Assembly: GCA_965206675.1 (NCBI GenBank)
Contig: CBDBKL010000007.1
Span: forward strand, 226,338 to 290,337
Origin: Bdellovibrionales bacterium
Lineage (GTDB): Bacteria; Bdellovibrionota; Bdellovibrionia; Bdellovibrionales; JAKFYE01
DNA length: 64,000 nt
Direction of reading: 5' to 3'
A model generated the notes under the pieces. It was not told the origin of the DNA and did no database searches. It saw only the letters and a program-made list of their open reading frames with translations. Shown piece by piece: positions 4,139 through 61,674 of this stretch. The translations under genes and the position numbers were made by a program. Position 1 is the stretch's first letter, and each line of letters begins with the position of its first letter.

Positions 4139-5182
4139 ATGTCTGATTGGAGAAAACGAGGTCGTTTTAGCGGTAATAGTGTCTTTTTTAGATACGTTCA
4201 ACCTCAATTGGAAAAACAATCTGATATTATTTATATATGGGATATAGATAAAACATATTTAGATACTCATTTTGAATCTCTAAGGGGCCTTATTAATACT
4301 ATAAGGGAAAAGGCTTTTCAAAAGCGGAATGTTCCAGGAACACGTGTTCTATTATCCGCTTTATTGGCAAGACACCAAGAAGAAGAGGCTTTTCCTGTCT
4401 ATTTTGTATCGGCCTCTCCACCTCAGTTGGAGGAGAAGATTCATACCAAACTAGAATTGGATGGAATAAAACCTTATGGTGCCTATTTTAAGGAAAGTTT
4501 GAAGGATTTAAAACCTAAGTCTTTTAGAAGATTGAACCGGCAAGTTGGATATAAATTACAGAGTTTATTGGATTTAAGAATGCGTTTGAAAGATAGTGTA
4601 GAGCAAATTTTATGGGGAGATGATAGTGAATCGGATGCTATTATATATTCACTATACTCTGATATTTGTTCCAAACGTTTAAAAGAATCTGAAATTAGAA
4701 AAATTTTAGATAATTTAGATGTAGAGAGCTTTCAAATAGATATTATTTTAGAATTACAAAAAAAAATACCTATAGAAGATCCTGTTAAAAAGATATATAT
4801 TAATTTAATCAATGATACAGATCCTGATTATTATTTAAAATATGGAAGAAGAATGCTGCCAACATCTAACACTCTTCAATTGGCCCTAGATTTATATCAA
4901 GATAAAAGAATAAATAAAACCCAACTTATACAAGTGGCTCAAGATATGATGACTAACTATGGTTTTATTCAAGATGAAATGTCACAAAGTTTTGACGATT
5001 TTATAGAGAGAAAAGTTTTAGAAAAGGAAATCATTGTTGAAACCTATGATATTTTAATGAAGAGTGAAATTTTTCCTTCCTACTATAAACACTATCCTAT
5101 ACCAGATGATTATACTGTTCCTAAACCTAATTTAAAAGGGTGGATTCCGGACTATATTGATTATTTTAATGATTTTCGATAA
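4139..5182 (+). CDS. HAD-like phosphatase, App1/DUF2183-like
   Basis: WDIDKTYLDT (DxDxT) and GDDSESD motifs, with spacing typical of HAD phosphatases. Confidence 0.45.
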   Translation: MSDWRKRGRFSGNSVFFRYVQPQLEKQSDIIYIWDIDKTYLDTHFESLRGLINTIREKAFQKRNVPGTRVLLSALLARHQEEEAFPVYFVSASPPQLEEKIHTKLELDGIKPYGAYFKESLKDLKPKSFRRLNRQVGYKLQSLLDLRMRLKDSVEQILWGDDSESDAIIYSLYSDICSKRLKESEIRKILDNLDVESFQIDIILELQKKIPIEDPVKKIYINLINDTDPDYYLKYGRRMLPTSNTLQLALDLYQDKRINKTQLIQVAQDMMTNYGFIQDEMSQSFDDFIERKVLEKEIIVETYDILMKSEIFPSYYKHYPIPDDYTVPKPNLKGWIPDYIDYFNDFR

Positions 5183-5958
5183 TTGAGATTTATAGGATAG
5201 TGAATAATAATAGGATGACCTTCAAAGGATTTAAATACTGTCCGTTCAATAACATCCATAATACATTGTTTAAGTTTTAAATCTGTTATTGTACCTCTAA
5301 TAAGACGTACAGAAGATGTCTTCCCATTTGGTCGAATTGTGAAATTTAAATGAATTTCCCATTTTTTTGTAGGATTTGTTTTAAGAAATTTTATGGAGCA
5401 TTTCTTTAGAAAGGATTCTCGTTTTATAAGGACATCTTTAATATATTCATTTGATAGAGATATTTTACTGATTTTTTCTTGAAAATTAATATTCATATTT
5501 TTAGCTTTTTCTATAGGTTTGGATTCAATATCTTGAATTTGTCCAGATTTTGAAATTATAAGGCGACCAGAAGAGCCGGAAGATAAAATTTTAAAATCTC
5601 CTTGGAAAAAGGTTATAAAAGAAAAATTTTGTTTTTTCTCAAAAAACAATTTAGAGTTTTGTTCAATTTCTAATTGGAAATTTGGAAAAATTTGAAGAAA
5701 AGCTTTTGAATCTTTTGAAGTCCTAAGTGTATCAAATTGTCTTAACTTTGTTTCGTCTTTTGCTTTATAATAGGTTAGACTTTTTTCTTTTTTAATATGA
5801 GCGTCTCCTTTGTGTGACTTTAATATTCCAATAACAGGACGTGAATCTTCAATTTTAAAATATTTTTGTATAAGTTGAAAAAGTTCTTTATTAAAAAAAA
5901 TAAGAATTAGAGCAAACATAAGAGCTGCAAATAATTTTATAGATTTCATTAAAATCAT
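5161..5958 (-). CDS. hypothetical exported protein with TonB-C/AgmX-like C-terminal domain
   Basis: N-terminal signal/TM segment. The C-terminal ~80 aa resemble a TonB-C-type fold by eye. Its 3' end overlaps the convergent gene by 22 nt. Confidence 0.4.
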   Translation of the reverse strand: MILMKSIKLFAALMFALILIFFNKELFQLIQKYFKIEDSRPVIGILKSHKGDAHIKKEKSLTYYKAKDETKLRQFDTLRTSKDSKAFLQIFPNFQLEIEQNSKLFFEKKQNFSFITFFQGDFKILSSGSSGRLIISKSGQIQDIESKPIEKAKNMNINFQEKISKISLSNEYIKDVLIKRESFLKKCSIKFLKTNPTKKWEIHLNFTIRPNGKTSSVRLIRGTITDLKLKQCIMDVIERTVFKSFEGHPIIIHYPINLNYRKSLK

Positions 5959-6019: not shown

Positions 6020-6179
6020 GTTTTGAAATATCTGAGAGAGAGCATTTCTAAAGGATTTCAAAACGCAGTTCTCTAAAGCGCAGGGCGTATCCTCGAAGAG
6101 GAGACGAGCCTGCGGCCTTTAGAGCTGTTTGAGGATTTGGAAGCCTTTAGAAATGCTCTCTCTCAAAGACGTTCAAAAA
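6020..6179 (-). repeat. Family-2 rod-hairpin repeat, copy 2A (core inverted relative to 2B/2C)
   Basis: Perfect 22-bp outer arms at 6033-6054 and 6144-6165. Inner core GCGCAGGGCGTATCCTCGAAGAGGAGACGAGCCTGCG is homologous to the reverse complement of the 53.8-kb and 61.6-kb cores. Confidence 0.85.
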
Positions 6180-6326
6180 CTTTTGTAAGACTATCTGTAC
6201 TCTTGGGTATGCCTCAATCGCTCCTTATTAGTTTTTATCAAAATCTACGCAAATAGAGTTAGCCTTCGATTTTTTTAGCGATATGACAAATATATATTAT
6301 GAACGATAAAGAGAAAAGACGTCTCT

Positions 6327-6662
6327 TTATTTAGGGATAGTCTCAGGGTTTTGTTTTTCTATTGGCGGCAATGTATCAGTTTTTGGTGCCTCTGTGCCTT
6401 GGGTTGGTGGTAGGGTATCGAGAGCACTTTTTGAAGTTGTGGCGGTAAATTTTGAAAGCATGATAGATGTGATGGCAAAAATAATAATAATGACCCGTGT
6501 GGCTTTAGTTAGTACATTTGTTGCCCCTGTTGCTCCTAAAATAGAATTTGAACTGGAGCCACCGCCAAAAGCTCCGAGACTTCCGCCCTTAGCGTCTTGC
6601 ATGAGAACAACCAGTATTAATAGGACAGCGATAATAATATGAACAACACCTAGGAATTCCAT
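6327..6662 (-). CDS. secG: preprotein translocase subunit SecG
   Basis: Two TM helices and the QDAKGGSLGAFGGGSS motif. Lies downstream of tpiA, as in many bacteria. Confidence 0.85.
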   Translation of the reverse strand: MEFLGVVHIIIAVLLILVVLMQDAKGGSLGAFGGGSSSNSILGATGATNVLTKATRVIIIIFAITSIMLSKFTATTSKSALDTLPPTQGTEAPKTDTLPPIEKQNPETIPK

Positions 6663-15639: not shown

Positions 15640-15741
15640 GATTCGTATAAAGGAGGACTGTCGAAAAGGTATCAGATACGAGGCGTTCAAGCTCAAACCG
15701 AACGCAGGCGTAGTTTTTCCTACGTCGGAGTGAGTGTTTGA
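15638..15741 (+). repeat. Family-1 repeat, copy 1a (3'-truncated, lacks closing arm)
   Basis: TTGATTCGTATAAAGGAGGACTGTCGAAAAGGTATCAGATACGAGGCGTTCAAGCTCAAACCGAACGCAGGCGTAGTTTTTCCTACGTCGGAGTGAGTGTTTGA aligns to 1c. Confidence 0.85.
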
Positions 15742-15845
15742 TTTGTATTAGGAGGACTGTTGAAAAAGTGCCAGATACGAGGCGTTCAAGTTCAAATCGA
15801 ATGAAGGCGTAGTTTTTCCTACGTCGGAATGAGCTTTAATTGATT
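15738..15845 (+). repeat. Family-1 repeat, copy 1b (3'-truncated, more diverged)
   Basis: Joined to 1a through TTTGATT microhomology. Same block order, several substitutions. Confidence 0.8.
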
Positions 15846-15868
15846 ATAATAAAGTCGATGGAATTTTC

Positions 15869-16010
15869 TTGACTCGTATTAGGAGGACTGTCGAAAAGGT
15901 ATCAGATACGAGGCGTTCAAGCTCAAACCGAACGTAGGCGTAGTTTTCCTACGTCGGAGTGAGTGTTTGAGTGATTGCAACGAAGTAGATGATACCTTTT
16001 CGACAGTCCT
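15869..16010 (+). repeat. Family-1 repeat, copy 1c (complete; reference copy)
   Basis: Perfect 21-bp outer arms at 15884-15904 and 15990-16010 (AGGACTGTCGAAAAGGTATCA). Central hairpin GGCGTAG-TTTTC-CTACGTC. Confidence 0.9.
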
Positions 16011-22729: not shown

Positions 22730-23155
22730 ATGGAACGGACAACTTTAAATTCTACAAAAGATCTTTGTCATTGGACTGAAAAATTCATAAATCGCTTAGG
22801 AACTAAGGATCTTATATTATTATCTGGGCCCATGGGAGTGGGGAAATCGGAATTTGTTAAATCGTGTTTAAAGTTATGGGATGTGGAAAATACGTGCTCA
22901 CCAACTTTTGCTATTCATAATATATATACAACGTCTCATAAGGGTGTTGTTGATCATATAGATTTATATAGATTAGAAAGCGAGACAGATTTAGAGTCTA
23001 CAGGTTTTTGGGATATCTTTGAAAAACCAAAAGGTACTGTTTTTATAGAATGGGCTGATCGGTTAAAAGTTAACTGGTCCCCTCAAGAATGGACTGTTTG
23101 GAATATAAGCCTTGAGTTTTTAAACGGAGATAAAAGAACTTTGACTTTAAGTTAG
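22730..23155 (+). CDS. tsaE: tRNA t6A37 biosynthesis ATPase TsaE
   Basis: GPMGVGKSEF P-loop, SPTFAI motif, ~140 aa. Confidence 0.85.
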   Translation: MERTTLNSTKDLCHWTEKFINRLGTKDLILLSGPMGVGKSEFVKSCLKLWDVENTCSPTFAIHNIYTTSHKGVVDHIDLYRLESETDLESTGFWDIFEKPKGTVFIEWADRLKVNWSPQEWTVWNISLEFLNGDKRTLTLS

Positions 23156-23283
23156 AATCTATCCCAACTTTGTGATGAAAACGAGTGAGAGGTAAGGATA
23201 AAGCAAAAAAGGCGTGCTTGGGGTACCATTGAGAGTGTTTTTTAATCGGGTGCCATCGCTGTCGTTGGTTTTGGGATGAGTTC
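23155..23283 (+). repeat. Family-3 repeat, copy 3b (complete; reference copy)
   Basis: Imperfect terminal inverted repeats GAATCTATCCCAAC...GGTTTTGGGATGAGTTC. Fills the convergent gap between tsaE and the 23289 gene. Confidence 0.8.
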
Positions 23284-36935: not shown

Positions 36936-36949
36936 GCAATCAAACTTTC

Positions 36950-37086
36950 TTGATTCGTATTAGGGGGACTGTCGAAAAGGTGTTAGCTACGAGGCGTACA
37001 AACCGAACGAAGGCGTAGTTTTTCCTACGTCGGAGTGAAGGTTTGAGTGATTGCAACGAAGTAGATGACACCTTTTCAACAGTCCT
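36950..37086 (+). repeat. Family-1 repeat, copy 1d (complete, short-core subfamily)
   Basis: Same architecture as 1c, with GAGGCGTACAAACCG in place of GAGGCGTTCAAGCTCAAACCG. Fills the convergent gap der/OMP and ends 2 nt from the OMP stop. Confidence 0.88.
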
Positions 37087-40711: not shown

Positions 40712-40812
40712 TTGACTGTGTTGCAATTGTTTTTACTCCGACGTAGGAAAAACTACGCCTCCATTCGTTTTGTACGCCTTGTATCTAACATTTTTTCAGC
40801 AACCTTCTTATA
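40712..40812 (-). repeat. Family-1 repeat, copy 1e (inverted, degenerate, no closing arm)
   Basis: The reverse complement reads ATAAGAAGGTTGCTGAAAAAATGTTAGATACAAGGCGTACAAAACGAATGGAGGCGTAGTTTTTCCTACGTCGGAG... Confidence 0.75.
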
Positions 40813-41087: not shown

Positions 41088-41414
41088 ATGGCGGTTAAAA
41101 AAATAGATTACTATGTTACTGAAAATGGCAAGGAACCCTTCCTTGAGTGGGTTAATAGTTTGGACATTGCTAGTCAGATTAGGGTTGACCGTTTTATCCA
41201 AAGAGTTGCTCAAGGCGGTGCTAAAAAGTCGATTAGAAGTTTAAAGAATGGTGTTTTTGAAATTAAAATTCCTCATGGATCTGGATTGAGAATATATTTT
41301 GGAGAAGTTGGAAACAAGTACATTCTTCTTTTAGTTGGTGGAGATAAAGGAACTCAAAGTAAGGACATTAAAAGAGCTAAAGAATATTGGAGTAATTATG
41401 GCAAACAGAAATAA
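41088..41414 (+). CDS. higB: type II toxin, RelE/HigB-like 'addiction module killer' family
   Basis: ~108 aa. The YVTENGKEPFLEW...GVFEIKI..GLRIYF pattern is typical of the TIGR02683-type toxin. Toxin-first order and a 17-nt overlap with the antitoxin. Confidence 0.8.
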   Translation: MAVKKIDYYVTENGKEPFLEWVNSLDIASQIRVDRFIQRVAQGGAKKSIRSLKNGVFEIKIPHGSGLRIYFGEVGNKYILLLVGGDKGTQSKDIKRAKEYWSNYGKQK

Positions 41415-41712
41415 AAGCTATGATGAAGTATTAGCAAGCAAATTTGAAAATCTTAAGTTTGCTCAAGGTTATTTGCTTAATATAGTTAAAAACGAAGGAC
41501 TTTCTATTGATGAAGCACTTTGCGAAACGATCAAGGCAATGGGGTTACAAAATTTTGCTGATAAATCTGATCTCTCTATCCAGGGAGTTTCGGACTTTGT
41601 TGCAAAAAGGCAGAAATGGAGTACAGATAAACTTTCGAAGCTCATTAACGAAGTCTTTAAGTTAAAAGTTAAACTGATTTTAGAAGTTCCAAAATCAAGC
41701 GAGGTCGCTTGA
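41398..41712 (+). CDS. higA: HTH antitoxin, HigA-like 'addiction module antidote' family
   Basis: ATG 41398 (MANRNKSYDEV...). ~104 aa with an HTH-like centre. Paired with the upstream toxin. Track start 41335 lies inside the toxin gene. Confidence 0.75.
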   Translation: MANRNKSYDEVLASKFENLKFAQGYLLNIVKNEGLSIDEALCETIKAMGLQNFADKSDLSIQGVSDFVAKRQKWSTDKLSKLINEVFKLKVKLILEVPKSSEVA

Positions 41713-42014
41713 ACTAGAATTTCTATATTATTATATTTAATCATAAATTTATTTTGTTTTTTATTCTTATTCTTATTGAGGAACAAAGGAGGTGGTAAAT
41801 ATATCAATAGTTATTAGTTGTACTCATGGAAAAAAACTGGAAAAAGGATATTAGAAATGCTCTGTAAAAATATTACCCCATCTTTTGTCTGGATAGCTAT
41901 TGGAAAAAATTCTCTCCTAGATATTCAATTTTTTTTCCAGAGCGCAGAGCGTATCGTGAGAAAGAGCAAGTTAATAATCAAACATAAAAGAGAAAATCGC
42001 ATAAAGAGCCAGAC

Positions 42015-42132
42015 GGACTTTTCAAAAAGCGTTAGATACGAGGCGTTCAAGCTCAAACCGAACGGTTTTTCCTACGTTGGAGTGAAGGTTTGAGTGATTA
42101 CAACGAAGTAGATGACGCTTTTTGAAAAGTCC
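42015..42132 (+). repeat. Family-1 repeat, copy 1f (complete arms with compensated sequence; central hairpin partly deleted)
   Basis: Arms CGGACTTTTCAAAAAGCGT / ACGCTTTTTGAAAAGTCCG form a perfect 19 bp. The core GATACGAGGCGTTCAAGCTCAAACCGAACG is conserved. Confidence 0.85.
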
Positions 42133-42183
42133 GCAGATACAATTAGTTGATTGTATAGCGGAGTTTATGTAACCATATAGGGT

Positions 42184-52229: not shown

Positions 52230-52232
52230 TAA

Positions 52233-52361
52233 GAGCCTATCCAAACTTGGTGATGAAAAAGAGCGAGAGCAAGGATGAAAGTAAAAAAGCCGTGCTGGGG
52301 ACATATTTTGGGGATATTTTTTAACTGGTGTAATCATCATCGTTGGTTTTGGGATAGGTTC
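52233..52361 (+). repeat. Family-3 repeat, copy 3c (complete)
   Basis: GAGCCTATCCAAACTTGGTGATGAAAAAGAGCGAGAGCAAGGATGAAAG...GGTGTAATCATCATCGTTGGTTTTGGGATAGGTTC. Lies between the purA stop and tRNA-Lys. Confidence 0.8.
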
Positions 52362-53709: not shown

Positions 53710-53757
53710 TTAATGAGTGTGTCAATACCTAAGATTTTATAATTTTAGAACATTACA

Positions 53758-53949
53758 AAGGGAGTTTTTTTCAGAGGGGTTCAAAAGCTCAGACAGTTCT
53801 GAGGGTTCGCAGCTCGTCTCTCCGCCAAAGGTTAAAACAGTAACTAGATAAAATTTGATTCAGTTAAACTTAAGAAAAACGGTTTCTAGCGGAGATACGC
53901 CCTGCGCCTCAGAAAACTCGTTTTGAACCCCTCTGAAAAAAACTCCCTT
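53758..53949 (+). repeat. Family-2 rod-hairpin repeat, copy 2B (with 63-nt apical insertion at 53826-53888)
   Basis: Perfect 29-bp outer arms AAGGGAGTTTTTTTCAGAGGGGTTCAAAA and its reverse complement. Core identical to 2C up to the apex. Confidence 0.88.
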
Positions 53950-53979
53950 CTTAACGCAAAAAAGAAAAATGGAACTTCC

Positions 53980-54115
53980 TTAATTCGTATTAGGAGGACT
54001 GTCGAAAAGGTGTCAGATACGAGGCGTACAAACCGAACGAAGGCGTAGTTTTCCTACGTCGGAGTGAAGGTTTGAGTGATTGCAACGAAGTAGATGACAC
54101 CTTTTCAACAATCCT
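53980..54115 (+). repeat. Family-1 repeat, copy 1g (complete, short-core subfamily)
   Basis: Near-identical to 1d. Its right arm (to 54115) contains the last three sense codons and the TGA stop of the 54105-55052 gene. Confidence 0.88.
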
Positions 54116-59869: not shown

Positions 59870-61135
59870 TTATCTGTCACCTATGAATAGAGAATATCTT
59901 CTTCCAGAGGGATCTAAATAGGACCTCAACCATTCAATAGAAGGAGAATCGGGTTTAACATGTGCCCCAGCCAGGTCATAAACCAACTGATCTGGGGTTA
60001 ACTGTAATTCAACACTTTTAACCAAGCCCATCTCAAATCGAGCTAAAAGATCGGCAATATAACTTTTAACTTTCTCTAGTTCTGTTTTATTCATATCAAG
60101 TGATTTTCTCAAATCAGTTAGAGTGTTTATGTGATAAGAAGGTGGTGATTCATTAATTGGGTCTAGTAGTTTTTCTGTGCGTAGGATAAAAGCTAATATT
60201 AATTGTGCATTCCTCAAATAACCGATAAGGTGTTCATCTCTTGAAGTGTTATAAACTGCTGGTATAGCACTTTGAGATAAACTATGGGGTAGTACGTTTG
60301 AAATATAATTAACTATATCCAAAAAGTGTTTAAATTTTTGATGTACCAAATCTCTTTCAACAGCACCTTGTCTTAATACAAATTGACTCTCATTGGCTAT
60401 CCAGTCATTTAATCTCGCGTCTAGTTCTTCAAATGATAAGCTTTGTAAACTATCTTTAAGTTCTTTTAAAGATGTTTGATTATCAAACAGTTCAGGTCGT
60501 AAAGCTCGTAATCTTGTCTCTGAACTCAATCGTCCAAGAGACATAGATTCTAGAATTTGAAATGAACGTTTTGGTATAGGATGGTTATGCTCAGAAGAAT
60601 CCCAATGATTTTTATTCAGATCTTTCTTTTGTTCTTTATAAATAGTTCTTACAGCAATCATAAACTCTGGACGTTGAGTTTGAGGGTCTACTCTTAAGTT
60701 CTCAGTCAAGTGTGCTAAATCATGGAGATAATATAATGCTGCTAAACCTACTGGCATATTGCCTTCTGCAACGAGTGAAACCCATTCGTGATGGAAAAGT
60801 CCAGTTAGTTCAGAAAGTTTCCAATGATGTGCATTAGGAATTTCATCTATTCCTGGGCGAAAGTTTCTTAACTCTCCATTTCTTTCAACTGATTCAAATT
60901 CAATTGATGCATAGATGGCTTCTGAGTTTTTCAATTGTCCATCTTCAATCATTTTTGAGACTCTACGATTATACATCTCCAAAGGAACCAAAAGATTTTC
61001 TGGAGGGATTATTTTTCTACCTTTTATCCTAAACCCCAGTTTTAAAAGAGTTTGGACATGATCGCTGTTAAATTTCTCTTTTTCTAATTTTTGTAACGAT
61101 GCAGACCATAGATTAGTTCCTTTAATTTTTTGCAT
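59870..61135 (-). CDS. hypothetical protein (421 aa, no family recognised)
   Basis: Long ORF with ordinary composition. 14-nt overlap with the upstream lipoprotein gene suggests translational coupling. Confidence 0.6.
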   Translation of the reverse strand: MQKIKGTNLWSASLQKLEKEKFNSDHVQTLLKLGFRIKGRKIIPPENLLVPLEMYNRRVSKMIEDGQLKNSEAIYASIEFESVERNGELRNFRPGIDEIPNAHHWKLSELTGLFHHEWVSLVAEGNMPVGLAALYYLHDLAHLTENLRVDPQTQRPEFMIAVRTIYKEQKKDLNKNHWDSSEHNHPIPKRSFQILESMSLGRLSSETRLRALRPELFDNQTSLKELKDSLQSLSFEELDARLNDWIANESQFVLRQGAVERDLVHQKFKHFLDIVNYISNVLPHSLSQSAIPAVYNTSRDEHLIGYLRNAQLILAFILRTEKLLDPINESPPSYHINTLTDLRKSLDMNKTELEKVKSYIADLLARFEMGLVKSVELQLTPDQLVYDLAGAHVKPDSPSIEWLRSYLDPSGRRYSLFIGDR

Positions 61136-61370
61136 TTTGGCTTCTAAGTTTTTTTATAGTGGCTTTTTGGCCTTTGGGGTCTGTGATTCTTTGATAGAGT
61201 TTTCTGCTATAAATGCTACAAATATTGACCCGAGCAGGGTGTCGCATAGGGTTTGTGAGCTGTACACCTTTTTCAGGTTGTGTGTTCTTAAAGGTTGAGC
61301 AGCCTGAAAGTGTAAAAATCAGCAATATTAACATTATTTTACTAATGTGTTGCATTCGAAAGAACATCAT
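61122..61370 (-). CDS. small basic lipoprotein
   Basis: MMFFRMQHISKIMLILLIFTLSGC signal with an LSGC lipobox. Start 61370 (or 61355) is preferred over track start 61472. Confidence 0.5.
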   Translation of the reverse strand: MMFFRMQHISKIMLILLIFTLSGCSTFKNTQPEKGVQLTNPMRHPARVNICSIYSRKLYQRITDPKGQKATIKKLRSQNAKN

Positions 61371-61530
61371 AACCCTTTCAAAATGATGAAATAAATAACC
61401 ATAAGCTTTTTCGGAAAAATTGGAGGGAAAATTAAAATAAAAAGGGATAAGGAAGGATTCAGACAGTTTCAAAGGTCACAAGTTCGTCTACCTCACTTTC
61501 ATTCGGTATACGTTCTTGCTTTGAAAACCC

Positions 61531-61674
61531 GAAAGAGAGAACTTTTTTTTTTAAGACTGAAAAAAAGCTCAGACAGTTCTGAGGGTTCGCAGCTCGTCTC
61601 TCCCTTCGGGAGATACGCCCTGCGCCTCAGAAAACTCGTTTTTTACAGTCTTAAAAAAGTTCTCTCTCTCTTTC
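61531..61674 (+). repeat. Family-2 rod-hairpin repeat, copy 2C (reference copy)
   Basis: Outer arms GAAAGAGAGAAC-T10-AAGACTG / CAGTCTT-A6-GTTCTCTCTCTCTTTC. Core GCTCAGACAGTTCTGAGGGTTCGCAGCTCGTCTCTCCCTTCGGGAGATACGCCCTGCGCCTCAGAAAACTCG. Confidence 0.88.

Follow-up and report, generated by a model that had tools for sequence, protein, structure and literature searches.

The hairpin repeats of family 2, found in a stretch of 64,000 nucleotides of a Bdellovibrionales genome (contig CBDBKL010000007.1, hereafter the window), are in our judgement and with moderate confidence palindromic intergenic repeats that are dispersed, non-coding and restricted to one clade, of the general kind of ERIC, bcr1, the Rickettsia palindromic elements (RPE) and REP/BIME. 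The family is previously undescribed, it is not a new kind of system. Copies arise, are swapped between loci, flip in place, decay and get deleted, and the individual copy is dispensable to the host. Family 2 looks like an ordinary dispensable repeat and not like an essential RNA gene. Base pairing in the copies would be kept by two compatible processes, a constraint on the hairpin and/or template switching. An earlier note had compared three copies of the window, 2A, 2B and 2C, and had taken compensated substitutions in the inverted copy 2A as a mark of selection on secondary structure. The observation was confirmed, the interpretation was partly supported.

Copy 2A (6020-6179) is a near-perfect hairpin element of 160 nt that obtained 95 bits with a covariance model of the family. 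The strand aligned in the earlier note is called C-sense, its better-folding complement R-strand; in 2A the C-sense lies on the minus and the R-strand on the plus strand. The outer arms at 6033-6062 and 6136-6165 pair with each other over 30 nt and are 93 % complementary. They enclose an internal loop, J1, with one side at 6063-6070 (ACGCAGTT; R-strand family consensus CGAGUUYU) and the other at 6125-6135 (R-strand consensus RCUGUYUGAGCU; the C-sense complement contains TCARACAG). On the plus strand, stem P1 is formed by the arms CTCTAAAG (6071-6078) and CTTTAGAG (6117-6124), and stem P2 by CGCAGG (6079-6084) and its 3' arm CCTGCG (6109-6114). Stem P3 and the apical hairpin (6086-6106) read CGT-A-TCCTC-GAA-GAGGA-G-ACG on the plus strand and CGT-C-TCCTC-TTC-GAGGA-T-ACG on the minus strand. 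In C-sense, P1 of 2A is CTCTAAAG (6124-6117) / CTTTAGAG (6078-6071), while 2B and 2C have TTCTGAGG / CCTCAGAA. The three compensated pairs reported earlier are real: positions 1, 5 and 7 changed from T-A to C-G, from G-C to A-T and from G-C to A-T, and all 8 pairs are kept. If 3 of the 8 positions had changed independently in each arm, the same three pairs would be hit with a probability of 1/56, and with a lower one if the base has to match as well. The compensation claimed for the apical stem holds in comparison to 2C (TCCTC-TTC-GAGGA versus TCTCCC-TTC-GGGAGA), but not to 2B, which carries a 67-nt insert instead of the TTC triloop. The flanking CGT/ACG with its C.T mismatch is retained between 2A and 2C. 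A segment of 38 nt adjoining the 2A arm (6167-6204) is present in the window and missing from a close strain (L044); its borders carry the microhomology AAGAG/TTGAG, and it lengthens the 2A hairpin by pairing of TTTTGAA with TTCAAAA.

The other copies of the window are on the plus strand. 2B (53753-53954; 65.6 bits) is a long form with outer arms at 53753-53786 and 53921-53954; its apical module of 67 nt, named X (53824-53890), stands between CTCC and GGAG in place of the triloop. This module is homologous to the apical module of long-form copies in a related metagenome-assembled genome (MAG), and 2B shares 75 % identity over 186 nt with one of them, L007. 2C (61531-61674, core 61563-61642; 78.5 bits) is a short form that starts 29 nt past the mazG stop codon. 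Directly beside it lies 2D (61456-61530; 63.7 bits), absent from the earlier listing, a core without outer arms with the helices TTTCAAAG/CTTTGAAA (P1), CAAG/CTTG (P2) and TACC/GGTA (apical stem). Eight compensated pairs distinguish 2D from 2C. A degenerate 31-nt pattern derived from the conserved core matched the window at exactly 4 sites, for an expectation of 0.00.

A family-2 unit is a rod of 140-200 nt with a core of about 77 nt, in which four short helices (P1, P2, P3, apical) are separated by nearly invariant unpaired nucleotides, whereas the helices themselves covary. On the R-strand the order of the 5' part is outer arm (30-36 nt) - AAARC - GAGUUYU - P1 - CGCAGGG - CGU-A-U[apical stem] - GAA, followed by [stem]A-G-ACG - A - GCCUGCG - RCC - P1' - RCUGUYUGAGCU - outer arm. 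Two isoforms occur in both genomes, a short one with the triloop C-TTC-G / C-GAA-G and a long one with a homologous, branched module X of 62-75 nt. The outer arms (30-36 bp) are homologous among the copies and diverge fast, with 28-46 % identity in ungapped comparison against 75-100 % for the core, yet the two arms of each copy are still 81-94 % complementary. Pairing has been maintained despite sequence change in P1, P2, the apical stem and the outer arms. Selection on structure instead of primary sequence, as proposed in the earlier note, does not describe the core adequately, as the unpaired motifs TCARACAG, AACTCG, CGTCT/ATACG and the triloop are conserved in sequence too.

The closest relative in the collections is a 1.82-Mb MAG of a 'Bdellovibrionales bacterium' (OZ220494.1), with 81 % identity in MurJ and 79 % in TpiA; the next relatives share about 50 %. 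A search of 185,579 species genomes, a collection that does not contain the window's own genome, for the 31-nt core pattern yielded true copies in OZ220494.1 only (10 pattern matches). Thirteen matches in other genomes did not continue into the rest of the core and stayed below significance with the covariance model, and the JGI metagenomes and viral contigs gave chance matches only. The covariance model, built from six short copies, detected 17 copies in the window and the MAG loci, of which 14 are distinct; the fetched parts of OZ220494.1 (about 120 kb, against 64 kb of the window) hold at least 13 copies, and one further copy is in the MAG region orthologous to the window. With Rfam (release 15) at gathering thresholds the window yielded two tRNAs only, and with E-values up to 10 only generic hairpin or miRNA-precursor matches far under threshold. 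The MAG units are arranged in tandem arrays (period 211, beside tRNA-Leu), pairs and mosaics with partial X modules, and identical copies occupy different loci. Decay is frequent: P1 is broken in L007, which looks like a chimera of two haplotypes, L005e is truncated, 2D is armless, the arms of L020a do not match, and a half relic remains at L043 3915-3975. At three MAG loci (L009 3964-4290, L010 6229-6478 and L018), a long (AACAAAAC)n microsatellite and a paralogous gene for a secreted or membrane protein of 201 aa adjoin family-2 copies; this block of about 1 kb is duplicated across the three loci with 100 % and 87 % identity.

The compensation seen in three copies extends to the larger alignment. 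Across the core of the 14 distinct copies from the two genomes, 88.5 % of the pair cells are paired, compared to 27-51 % in controls with slid pairings, and double changes occurred in 11 of 21 pairs; stem substitutions are thus not mostly uncompensated. The covariation score of 0.368 was reached by none of 500 shuffles (0.183). The full-length alignment with the apex removed gave 88.8 % paired cells against 31-56 % in slid controls, double changes in 13 of 17 outer-arm pairs and a score of 0.420, again not reached in 500 shuffles (0.218); the scores of slid controls were at most 0.23. The significance of these covariation values is overstated, owing to the relatedness of the copies and to the fitting of one alignment to the model. 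P1 alone occurs in at least 6 distinct haplotypes, all fully or nearly fully paired.

Downstream of secG, three close strains share about 95 % identity in the flanks. 2A is present in the window with the C-sense in gene direction. The same locus in L044 (SRR23258159; TpiA 94 % identical) has the 2A-specific arms (GAGAGAGAGCATTTCT.AAGG) around an inverted inner part: of the final 39 nt of this contig, 37 agree with the plus strand of the window (score 73), compared to a score of 43 for the minus strand. In L046 (SRR23238833) the element is gone by a deletion between two GAAATG direct repeats that left the scar GATTGAAATG joined to CTCTCC, and the MAG has a spacer of 134 nt without the element. 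The orthologous region of the MAG contains a short copy 3' of mazG and a half relic upstream of purA, i.e., at the sites of 2C/2D and of 2B, both in reversed orientation. In a comparison with the L005 array, the core of the former (L043a) is inverted relative to the neighbouring X modules. The mazG site holds a family-1 element, belonging to a second hairpin-repeat family of the window, in one close strain and a chimera of family-1 arms and a family-2 long-form core in the other (L050 4552-4595; L049 3710-3739). Repeat insertion altered the last codons of mazG, the product of which ends with KNSVV in the window and with KNK in the close strains. Several short-read (Logan) contigs from the close strains stop inside family-1 or family-2 repeats (the end of L044 at 9511, the start of L047 at 1, and the ends of L049, L050 and L051).

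The core was present in both orientations relative to the flanking genes, which are on the minus strand at the three loci, as the earlier note had stated. Its conclusion of an orientation-independent function finds no support: copies are dispensable, with 2A deleted in SRR23238833 and absent in the MAG, and many are relics. Element parts are also exchanged between loci. 2B and 2C have the same core, base for base (53783-53823 = 61563-61603 and 53891-53924 = 61609-61642), while the outer arms share just 41-46 % identity and the apices differ (67-nt module versus triloop); L003a and L010a of the MAG differ in the apex alone. The identity of the 2B and 2C cores implies a recent exchange of core or apex between their loci. 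As an alternative origin of module X, the precise insertion of a transposon into the triloop was considered and is unlikely, for the replaced segment is C-TTC-G in the window and the whole apical stem in the MAG. Exchange between copies is the simpler account.

The two strands of the repeat are not equivalent. Each strand folds far better than expected (z of about -7 to -10 for the minimum free energy), but the fold is not the near-symmetric rod that had been assumed. The R-strand, with the loop C-GAA-G and an A.G mismatch, is more stable than the C-sense, with C-TTC-G and C.T, in 12 of 14 copies, by 3-10 kcal/mol in the window and by 10-19 kcal/mol in most MAG copies, and DNA energy parameters give an asymmetry in the same direction. 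Over the distinct copies, 75 G.U pairs form on the R-strand and 23 on the C-sense (core alone: 16 and 8). A mutation bias of the replication strand was rejected as explanation of this skew in G.U pairs: the R-strand coincides with the inferred leading strand at 5 MAG loci and with the lagging strand at 3, and the GC skew of the window is positive throughout, placing it in one replichore, yet both orientations occur there. The asymmetry speaks for a constraint that acts on one of the two strands in single-stranded form, be it as RNA or as DNA, and not on a duplex cruciform.

Two compatible processes could keep the pairing. First, the single-stranded hairpin of the R-strand, which tolerates G.U or G.T pairs, may be constrained, and some protein would recognise its conserved loops, either in the transcript or while the element is copied. 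The hairpin could be needed for copying by some enzyme or for a role in transcripts. This process agrees with the G.U asymmetry and with a core that evolves slowly between the species. Second, template switching in replication, or correction of one arm by the other, may turn a one-sided change into a compensated pair in a single step, and it would also invert the segment between the arms. For template switching, a homogenisation of arms, multiple compensatory changes and the inversion of spacer or loop have been described (PMC8794818; PMC8604942). Double substitutions, which the earlier note had taken as the signature of selection on structure, are consequently no proof of selection on a functional RNA. 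The second process fits the observed flips, and the inverted copy 2A would then be the product of a flip in place and not of an independent insertion. The data at hand do not separate hairpin constraint from template switching.

Several observations weigh against the classification as a dispersed palindromic repeat and the history given above. A mechanism of copying is not demonstrated, because no copying machinery was found and no target duplication was seen: the Pfam scan of 13 open reading frames (ORFs) of the window revealed no transposase, RAYT or recombinase, and inspection by eye of the ends of 2A, 2B, 2C and the MAG copies revealed no target-site duplication, at boundaries that are blurred by pairing that runs into the flanks. 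The pattern of conservation is reversed relative to MITEs (miniature transposable elements with inverted repeats) and REPINs, with a conserved centre and variable termini. Between the two species the core is 75-88 % identical and the arms 28-41 %; this difference and the nearly invariant unpaired nucleotides call for some kind of selection on the core, which might serve the host. For the inversion at the 2A locus, the evidence consists of the final 39 nt of a single short-read contig, L044, that ends inside the element, and fixed differences between strains do not show how frequently flips occur. The G.U asymmetry stems from few independent arm lineages, because many MAG copies share their arms by descent.

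The genes flanking the copies are housekeeping genes (secG, tpiA, purA, mazG, murJ). 2A lies between secG (6327-6662, minus) and an ORF of 265 aa (5161-5958, minus). A host-beneficial cis-acting RNA, a rod co-transcribed in 3' untranslated regions or operon spacers that acts as RNase III substrate, as barrier to 3' exonucleases or as terminator or attenuator, would explain the covariation as selection on the RNA fold, and also the gathering of G.U pairs on one strand. Perfect duplexes of at least 30 bp are typical RNase III substrates. Copies are situated just past stop codons, e.g., 2C behind mazG, and in the window lineage the R-strand is in mRNA sense for 2B, 2C, 2D and the flipped 2A allele of L044. 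ERIC and Correia elements are known to influence the fate of mRNAs (PMC3184786). However, the R-strand is antisense to the flanking genes in 2A of the window and at every tandem-gene locus examined in the MAG (L007, L009/L018/L010, L020), copies are lost or flipped between close strains without a conserved orientation, and many are relics. A terminator-like site was detected in 2C only, without a consistent U-tract among the copies. We regard a cis-acting RNA as an unlikely account of the family. Some further candidates for the core were discarded. A conserved small ORF across it (KSSDSSEGSQLVSP and similar) was rejected, as the copies resemble each other as DNA and their reading frame is shifted by apical-stem indels; resemblances by eye to hammerhead, twister or domain 5 of group II introns had no supporting Rfam match; the internal loop does not fit a K-turn, for the tandem G.A pairs abut the outer helix and not a 3-nt bulge; and the consensus of an IHF site, WATCAANNNNTTR, was unmatched by eye.

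The proposal that stands behind the earlier note, an orientation-independent double-stranded DNA structure selected as DNA, either a cruciform or a platform for nucleoid or topology proteins, appears improbable. It accommodates the tolerance of both orientations and the flips in place, and the palindrome is long and near-perfect, with both strands folding far better than shuffles under DNA parameters as well. REP/BIME elements bind gyrase and IHF. A cruciform, however, needs both hairpins, and the strands differ by 3-19 kcal/mol, with A.C mismatches strongly predominating on one strand. The conserved loops are asymmetric and do not form a palindrome, many MAG copies have arms that pair too imperfectly on one strand, and the copies are dispensable. 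The strand asymmetry thus argues against a double-stranded cruciform as the selected form, also under DNA energy parameters.

Still more doubtful is a multi-copy family of small RNA genes, i.e., of independent transcription units for a rod-shaped RNA with a protein-binding internal loop. Conserved loops, covarying helices and the strand preference would suit such genes, as would the two isoforms conserved in both genomes and the R-strand that is often antisense to its neighbours in the MAG, as that of an independent unit could be. But promoter-like or terminator-like signals common to the copies are lacking (the scan of 2A, 2C and 2D revealed no internal promoter-like site), the family has no Rfam relative and is confined to two or three genomes, and presence/absence patterns, flips, chimeras and truncated relics are atypical of RNA genes. 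Similarly little credence is given to a heritable invertible RNA switch. A flip would swap the version of the repeat embedded in the flanking mRNA, because the strands fold unequally and their loops differ (C-GAA-G with A.G versus C-UUC-G with C.U); this could toggle processing or stability, with the GAGUU / CUGUYUGAGC loop as dock of a dedicated protein. If true, it would be a new kind of phase variation that operates via RNA structure and not via a promoter. A site-specific inverton driven by a dedicated invertase is the least probable of all, since the inverted-repeat arms around a segment that occurs in both orientations at one locus, between close strains only, and an XerC/D-like gene 430 nt from one MAG copy are countered by a segment that is itself a hairpin without internal promoter, by arms that differ among copies and hence offer no common recombinase site, by the lack of an invertase in the scanned ORFs beside the window copies, and by the housekeeping appearance of the Xer-like gene, which adjoins just one copy.

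Understood as a dispensable palindromic repeat, family 2 shows textbook covariation, a single 8-bp helix occurring in six or more paired haplotypes, side by side with clear marks of an unstable element that the host can do without. Compensatory substitutions alone are therefore no proof of a functional RNA. The family illustrates well that covariation can occur where no host function is evident, and the flip of a structured repeat in place was directly observed. With both orientations and a deletion among close strains, the 2A locus offers a direct test bed for models of template switching and arm recombination. The repeats break up short-read assemblies and reshape the 3' ends of genes, as in the C-terminus of mazG, which is relevant for the annotation of uncultured Bdellovibrionales.

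The window contains further repeats and genes of interest. Family 1 is a hairpin repeat of about 130 nt (AGGACTGTCGAAAAGG...CCTTTTCGACAGTCCT), unrelated to family 2; motifs shared by eye suggested a relationship, which was unsupported, as local alignment scores were within those of shuffles. Its copies are at 15651-16010 (three tandem units), 36938-37086, 40732-40810 (minus), 42011-42133 and 53968-54115, and one of them abuts 2B and overlaps the stop codon of a 2-hydroxyacid dehydrogenase. The apical hairpin of family 1, GGCGTAG-TTTTTC-CTACGTC, has a G.T pair on one strand only. A Gp49/HigB-like toxin gene (PF05973) and a partner ORF that overlaps it are located at 41088-41712, between the copies 40732-40810 and 42011-42133, which are inverted to each other; the toxin gene and the flanking family-1 copies may constitute a small composite mobile unit. 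A third repeat of 130 nt occurs at 23154-23283 and 52232-52361 with 72 % identity, one copy being situated between tRNA-Lys and purA; this repeat pairs at its ends only and does not form a rod. Between murJ and 2D (59870-61472) are an ORF of 421 aa, without a Pfam family above threshold, and a small lipoprotein-like ORF; the orthologous MAG region lacks both, with a distance of 365 nt between murJ and mazG.

In comparison with known systems, family 2 shares with structured RNAs a covariation above controls (none of 500 shuffles) and a bias of G.U pairs to one strand (75:23), at an overstated significance. It differs from attC sites, which have RYYYAAC / GTTRRRY core sites and stand in cassette arrays beside an integrase, as GTTRRRY was not seen by eye at the boundaries and the flanks are housekeeping genes. 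It differs from invertons, as no promoter-like site was found inside 2A, 2C and 2D and no recombinase in the neighbouring ORFs scanned. REP, BIME and REPIN elements are likewise palindromic units in mosaics or tandem arrays downstream of genes, and the CGTC motif of family 2 adjoins the apical hairpin. Tagged REPs (GTAG, CGTC) measure 20-40 bp and bear a terminal tag that stays unpaired, on stems of 8-9 bp with loops of 4-5 nt, in which alternative complementary stem residues and G-T pairs suggest a function as single strand (PMC3733652). In family 2 the C-sense does contain CTCGTCT, but CGT pairs with ACG as P3, and the unit measures 77-200 nt. Where the CGTC family has stems of 8-9 bp that start with A/T pairs, loops of 4-5 nt and a CCA-like tail, family 2 has a stem of 4-6 bp and a 3-nt loop (TTC/GAA). 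Template switching in quasi-palindromes predicts compensated stem changes at multiple pairs and the inversion between arms (PMC8794818, PMC8604942); it is a mutational mechanism and not an element family, and it leaves the conserved unpaired motifs and the strand asymmetry unexplained.

The closest analogues of family 2 are bcr1, ERIC, REP/BIME with the tagged REPs, and the palindromic repeats that reduced genomes contain. MITEs, among which ERIC, Correia and bcr1 are included, are matched in size and inverted arms (140-200 nt, arms of 30-36 nt with 81-94 % complementarity, no conserved ORF), but the termini of family 2 are its least conserved part. Presence/absence polymorphism, typical for MITEs, was observed at the 2A site, where the window and L044 have the element, L046 has lost it by deletion and the MAG lacks it, and the repeats at the mazG site differ between strains. 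RPEs are palindromic repeats of 100-150 nt, restricted to a lineage, without identified transposase and in a small AT-rich genome; family 2 has the same features (about 1.8 Mb, 35 % GC). RPEs are often inserted in frame within genes. All copies of family 2 seen are in contrast intergenic, though repeat insertion has changed the last codons of mazG. The ERIC/IRU elements of Enterobacteriaceae (127 bp) are also imperfect palindromes that occupy intergenic sites in either orientation and are present or absent at orthologous sites. Size variants of ERIC result from internal insertions of about 70 bp. ERICs lie in transcribed intergenic regions, and orientation-dependent effects on mRNAs have been reported (PMC3184786). 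ERIC-type terminal inverted repeats, target duplications and the flanking TA (PMC3184786) were not seen in family 2, which is conserved in the centre instead of the termini and differs in taxon and sequence.

The element bcr1 has 5-bp terminal direct repeats and a known transcription, and it has no sequence relationship to family 2. We know of no description of in-place flipping or of short and long apical isoforms for bcr1. In the Bacillus cereus group, bcr1 elements of about 155 bp are transcribed, show compensatory changes and have a non-conserved distribution (PMC3184786). The likeness to family 2 extends over most other features: both are dispersed non-coding elements of about 150 nt that form a long imperfect hairpin with compensatory pairs, vary in distribution between close strains and include copies that have lost their structure.

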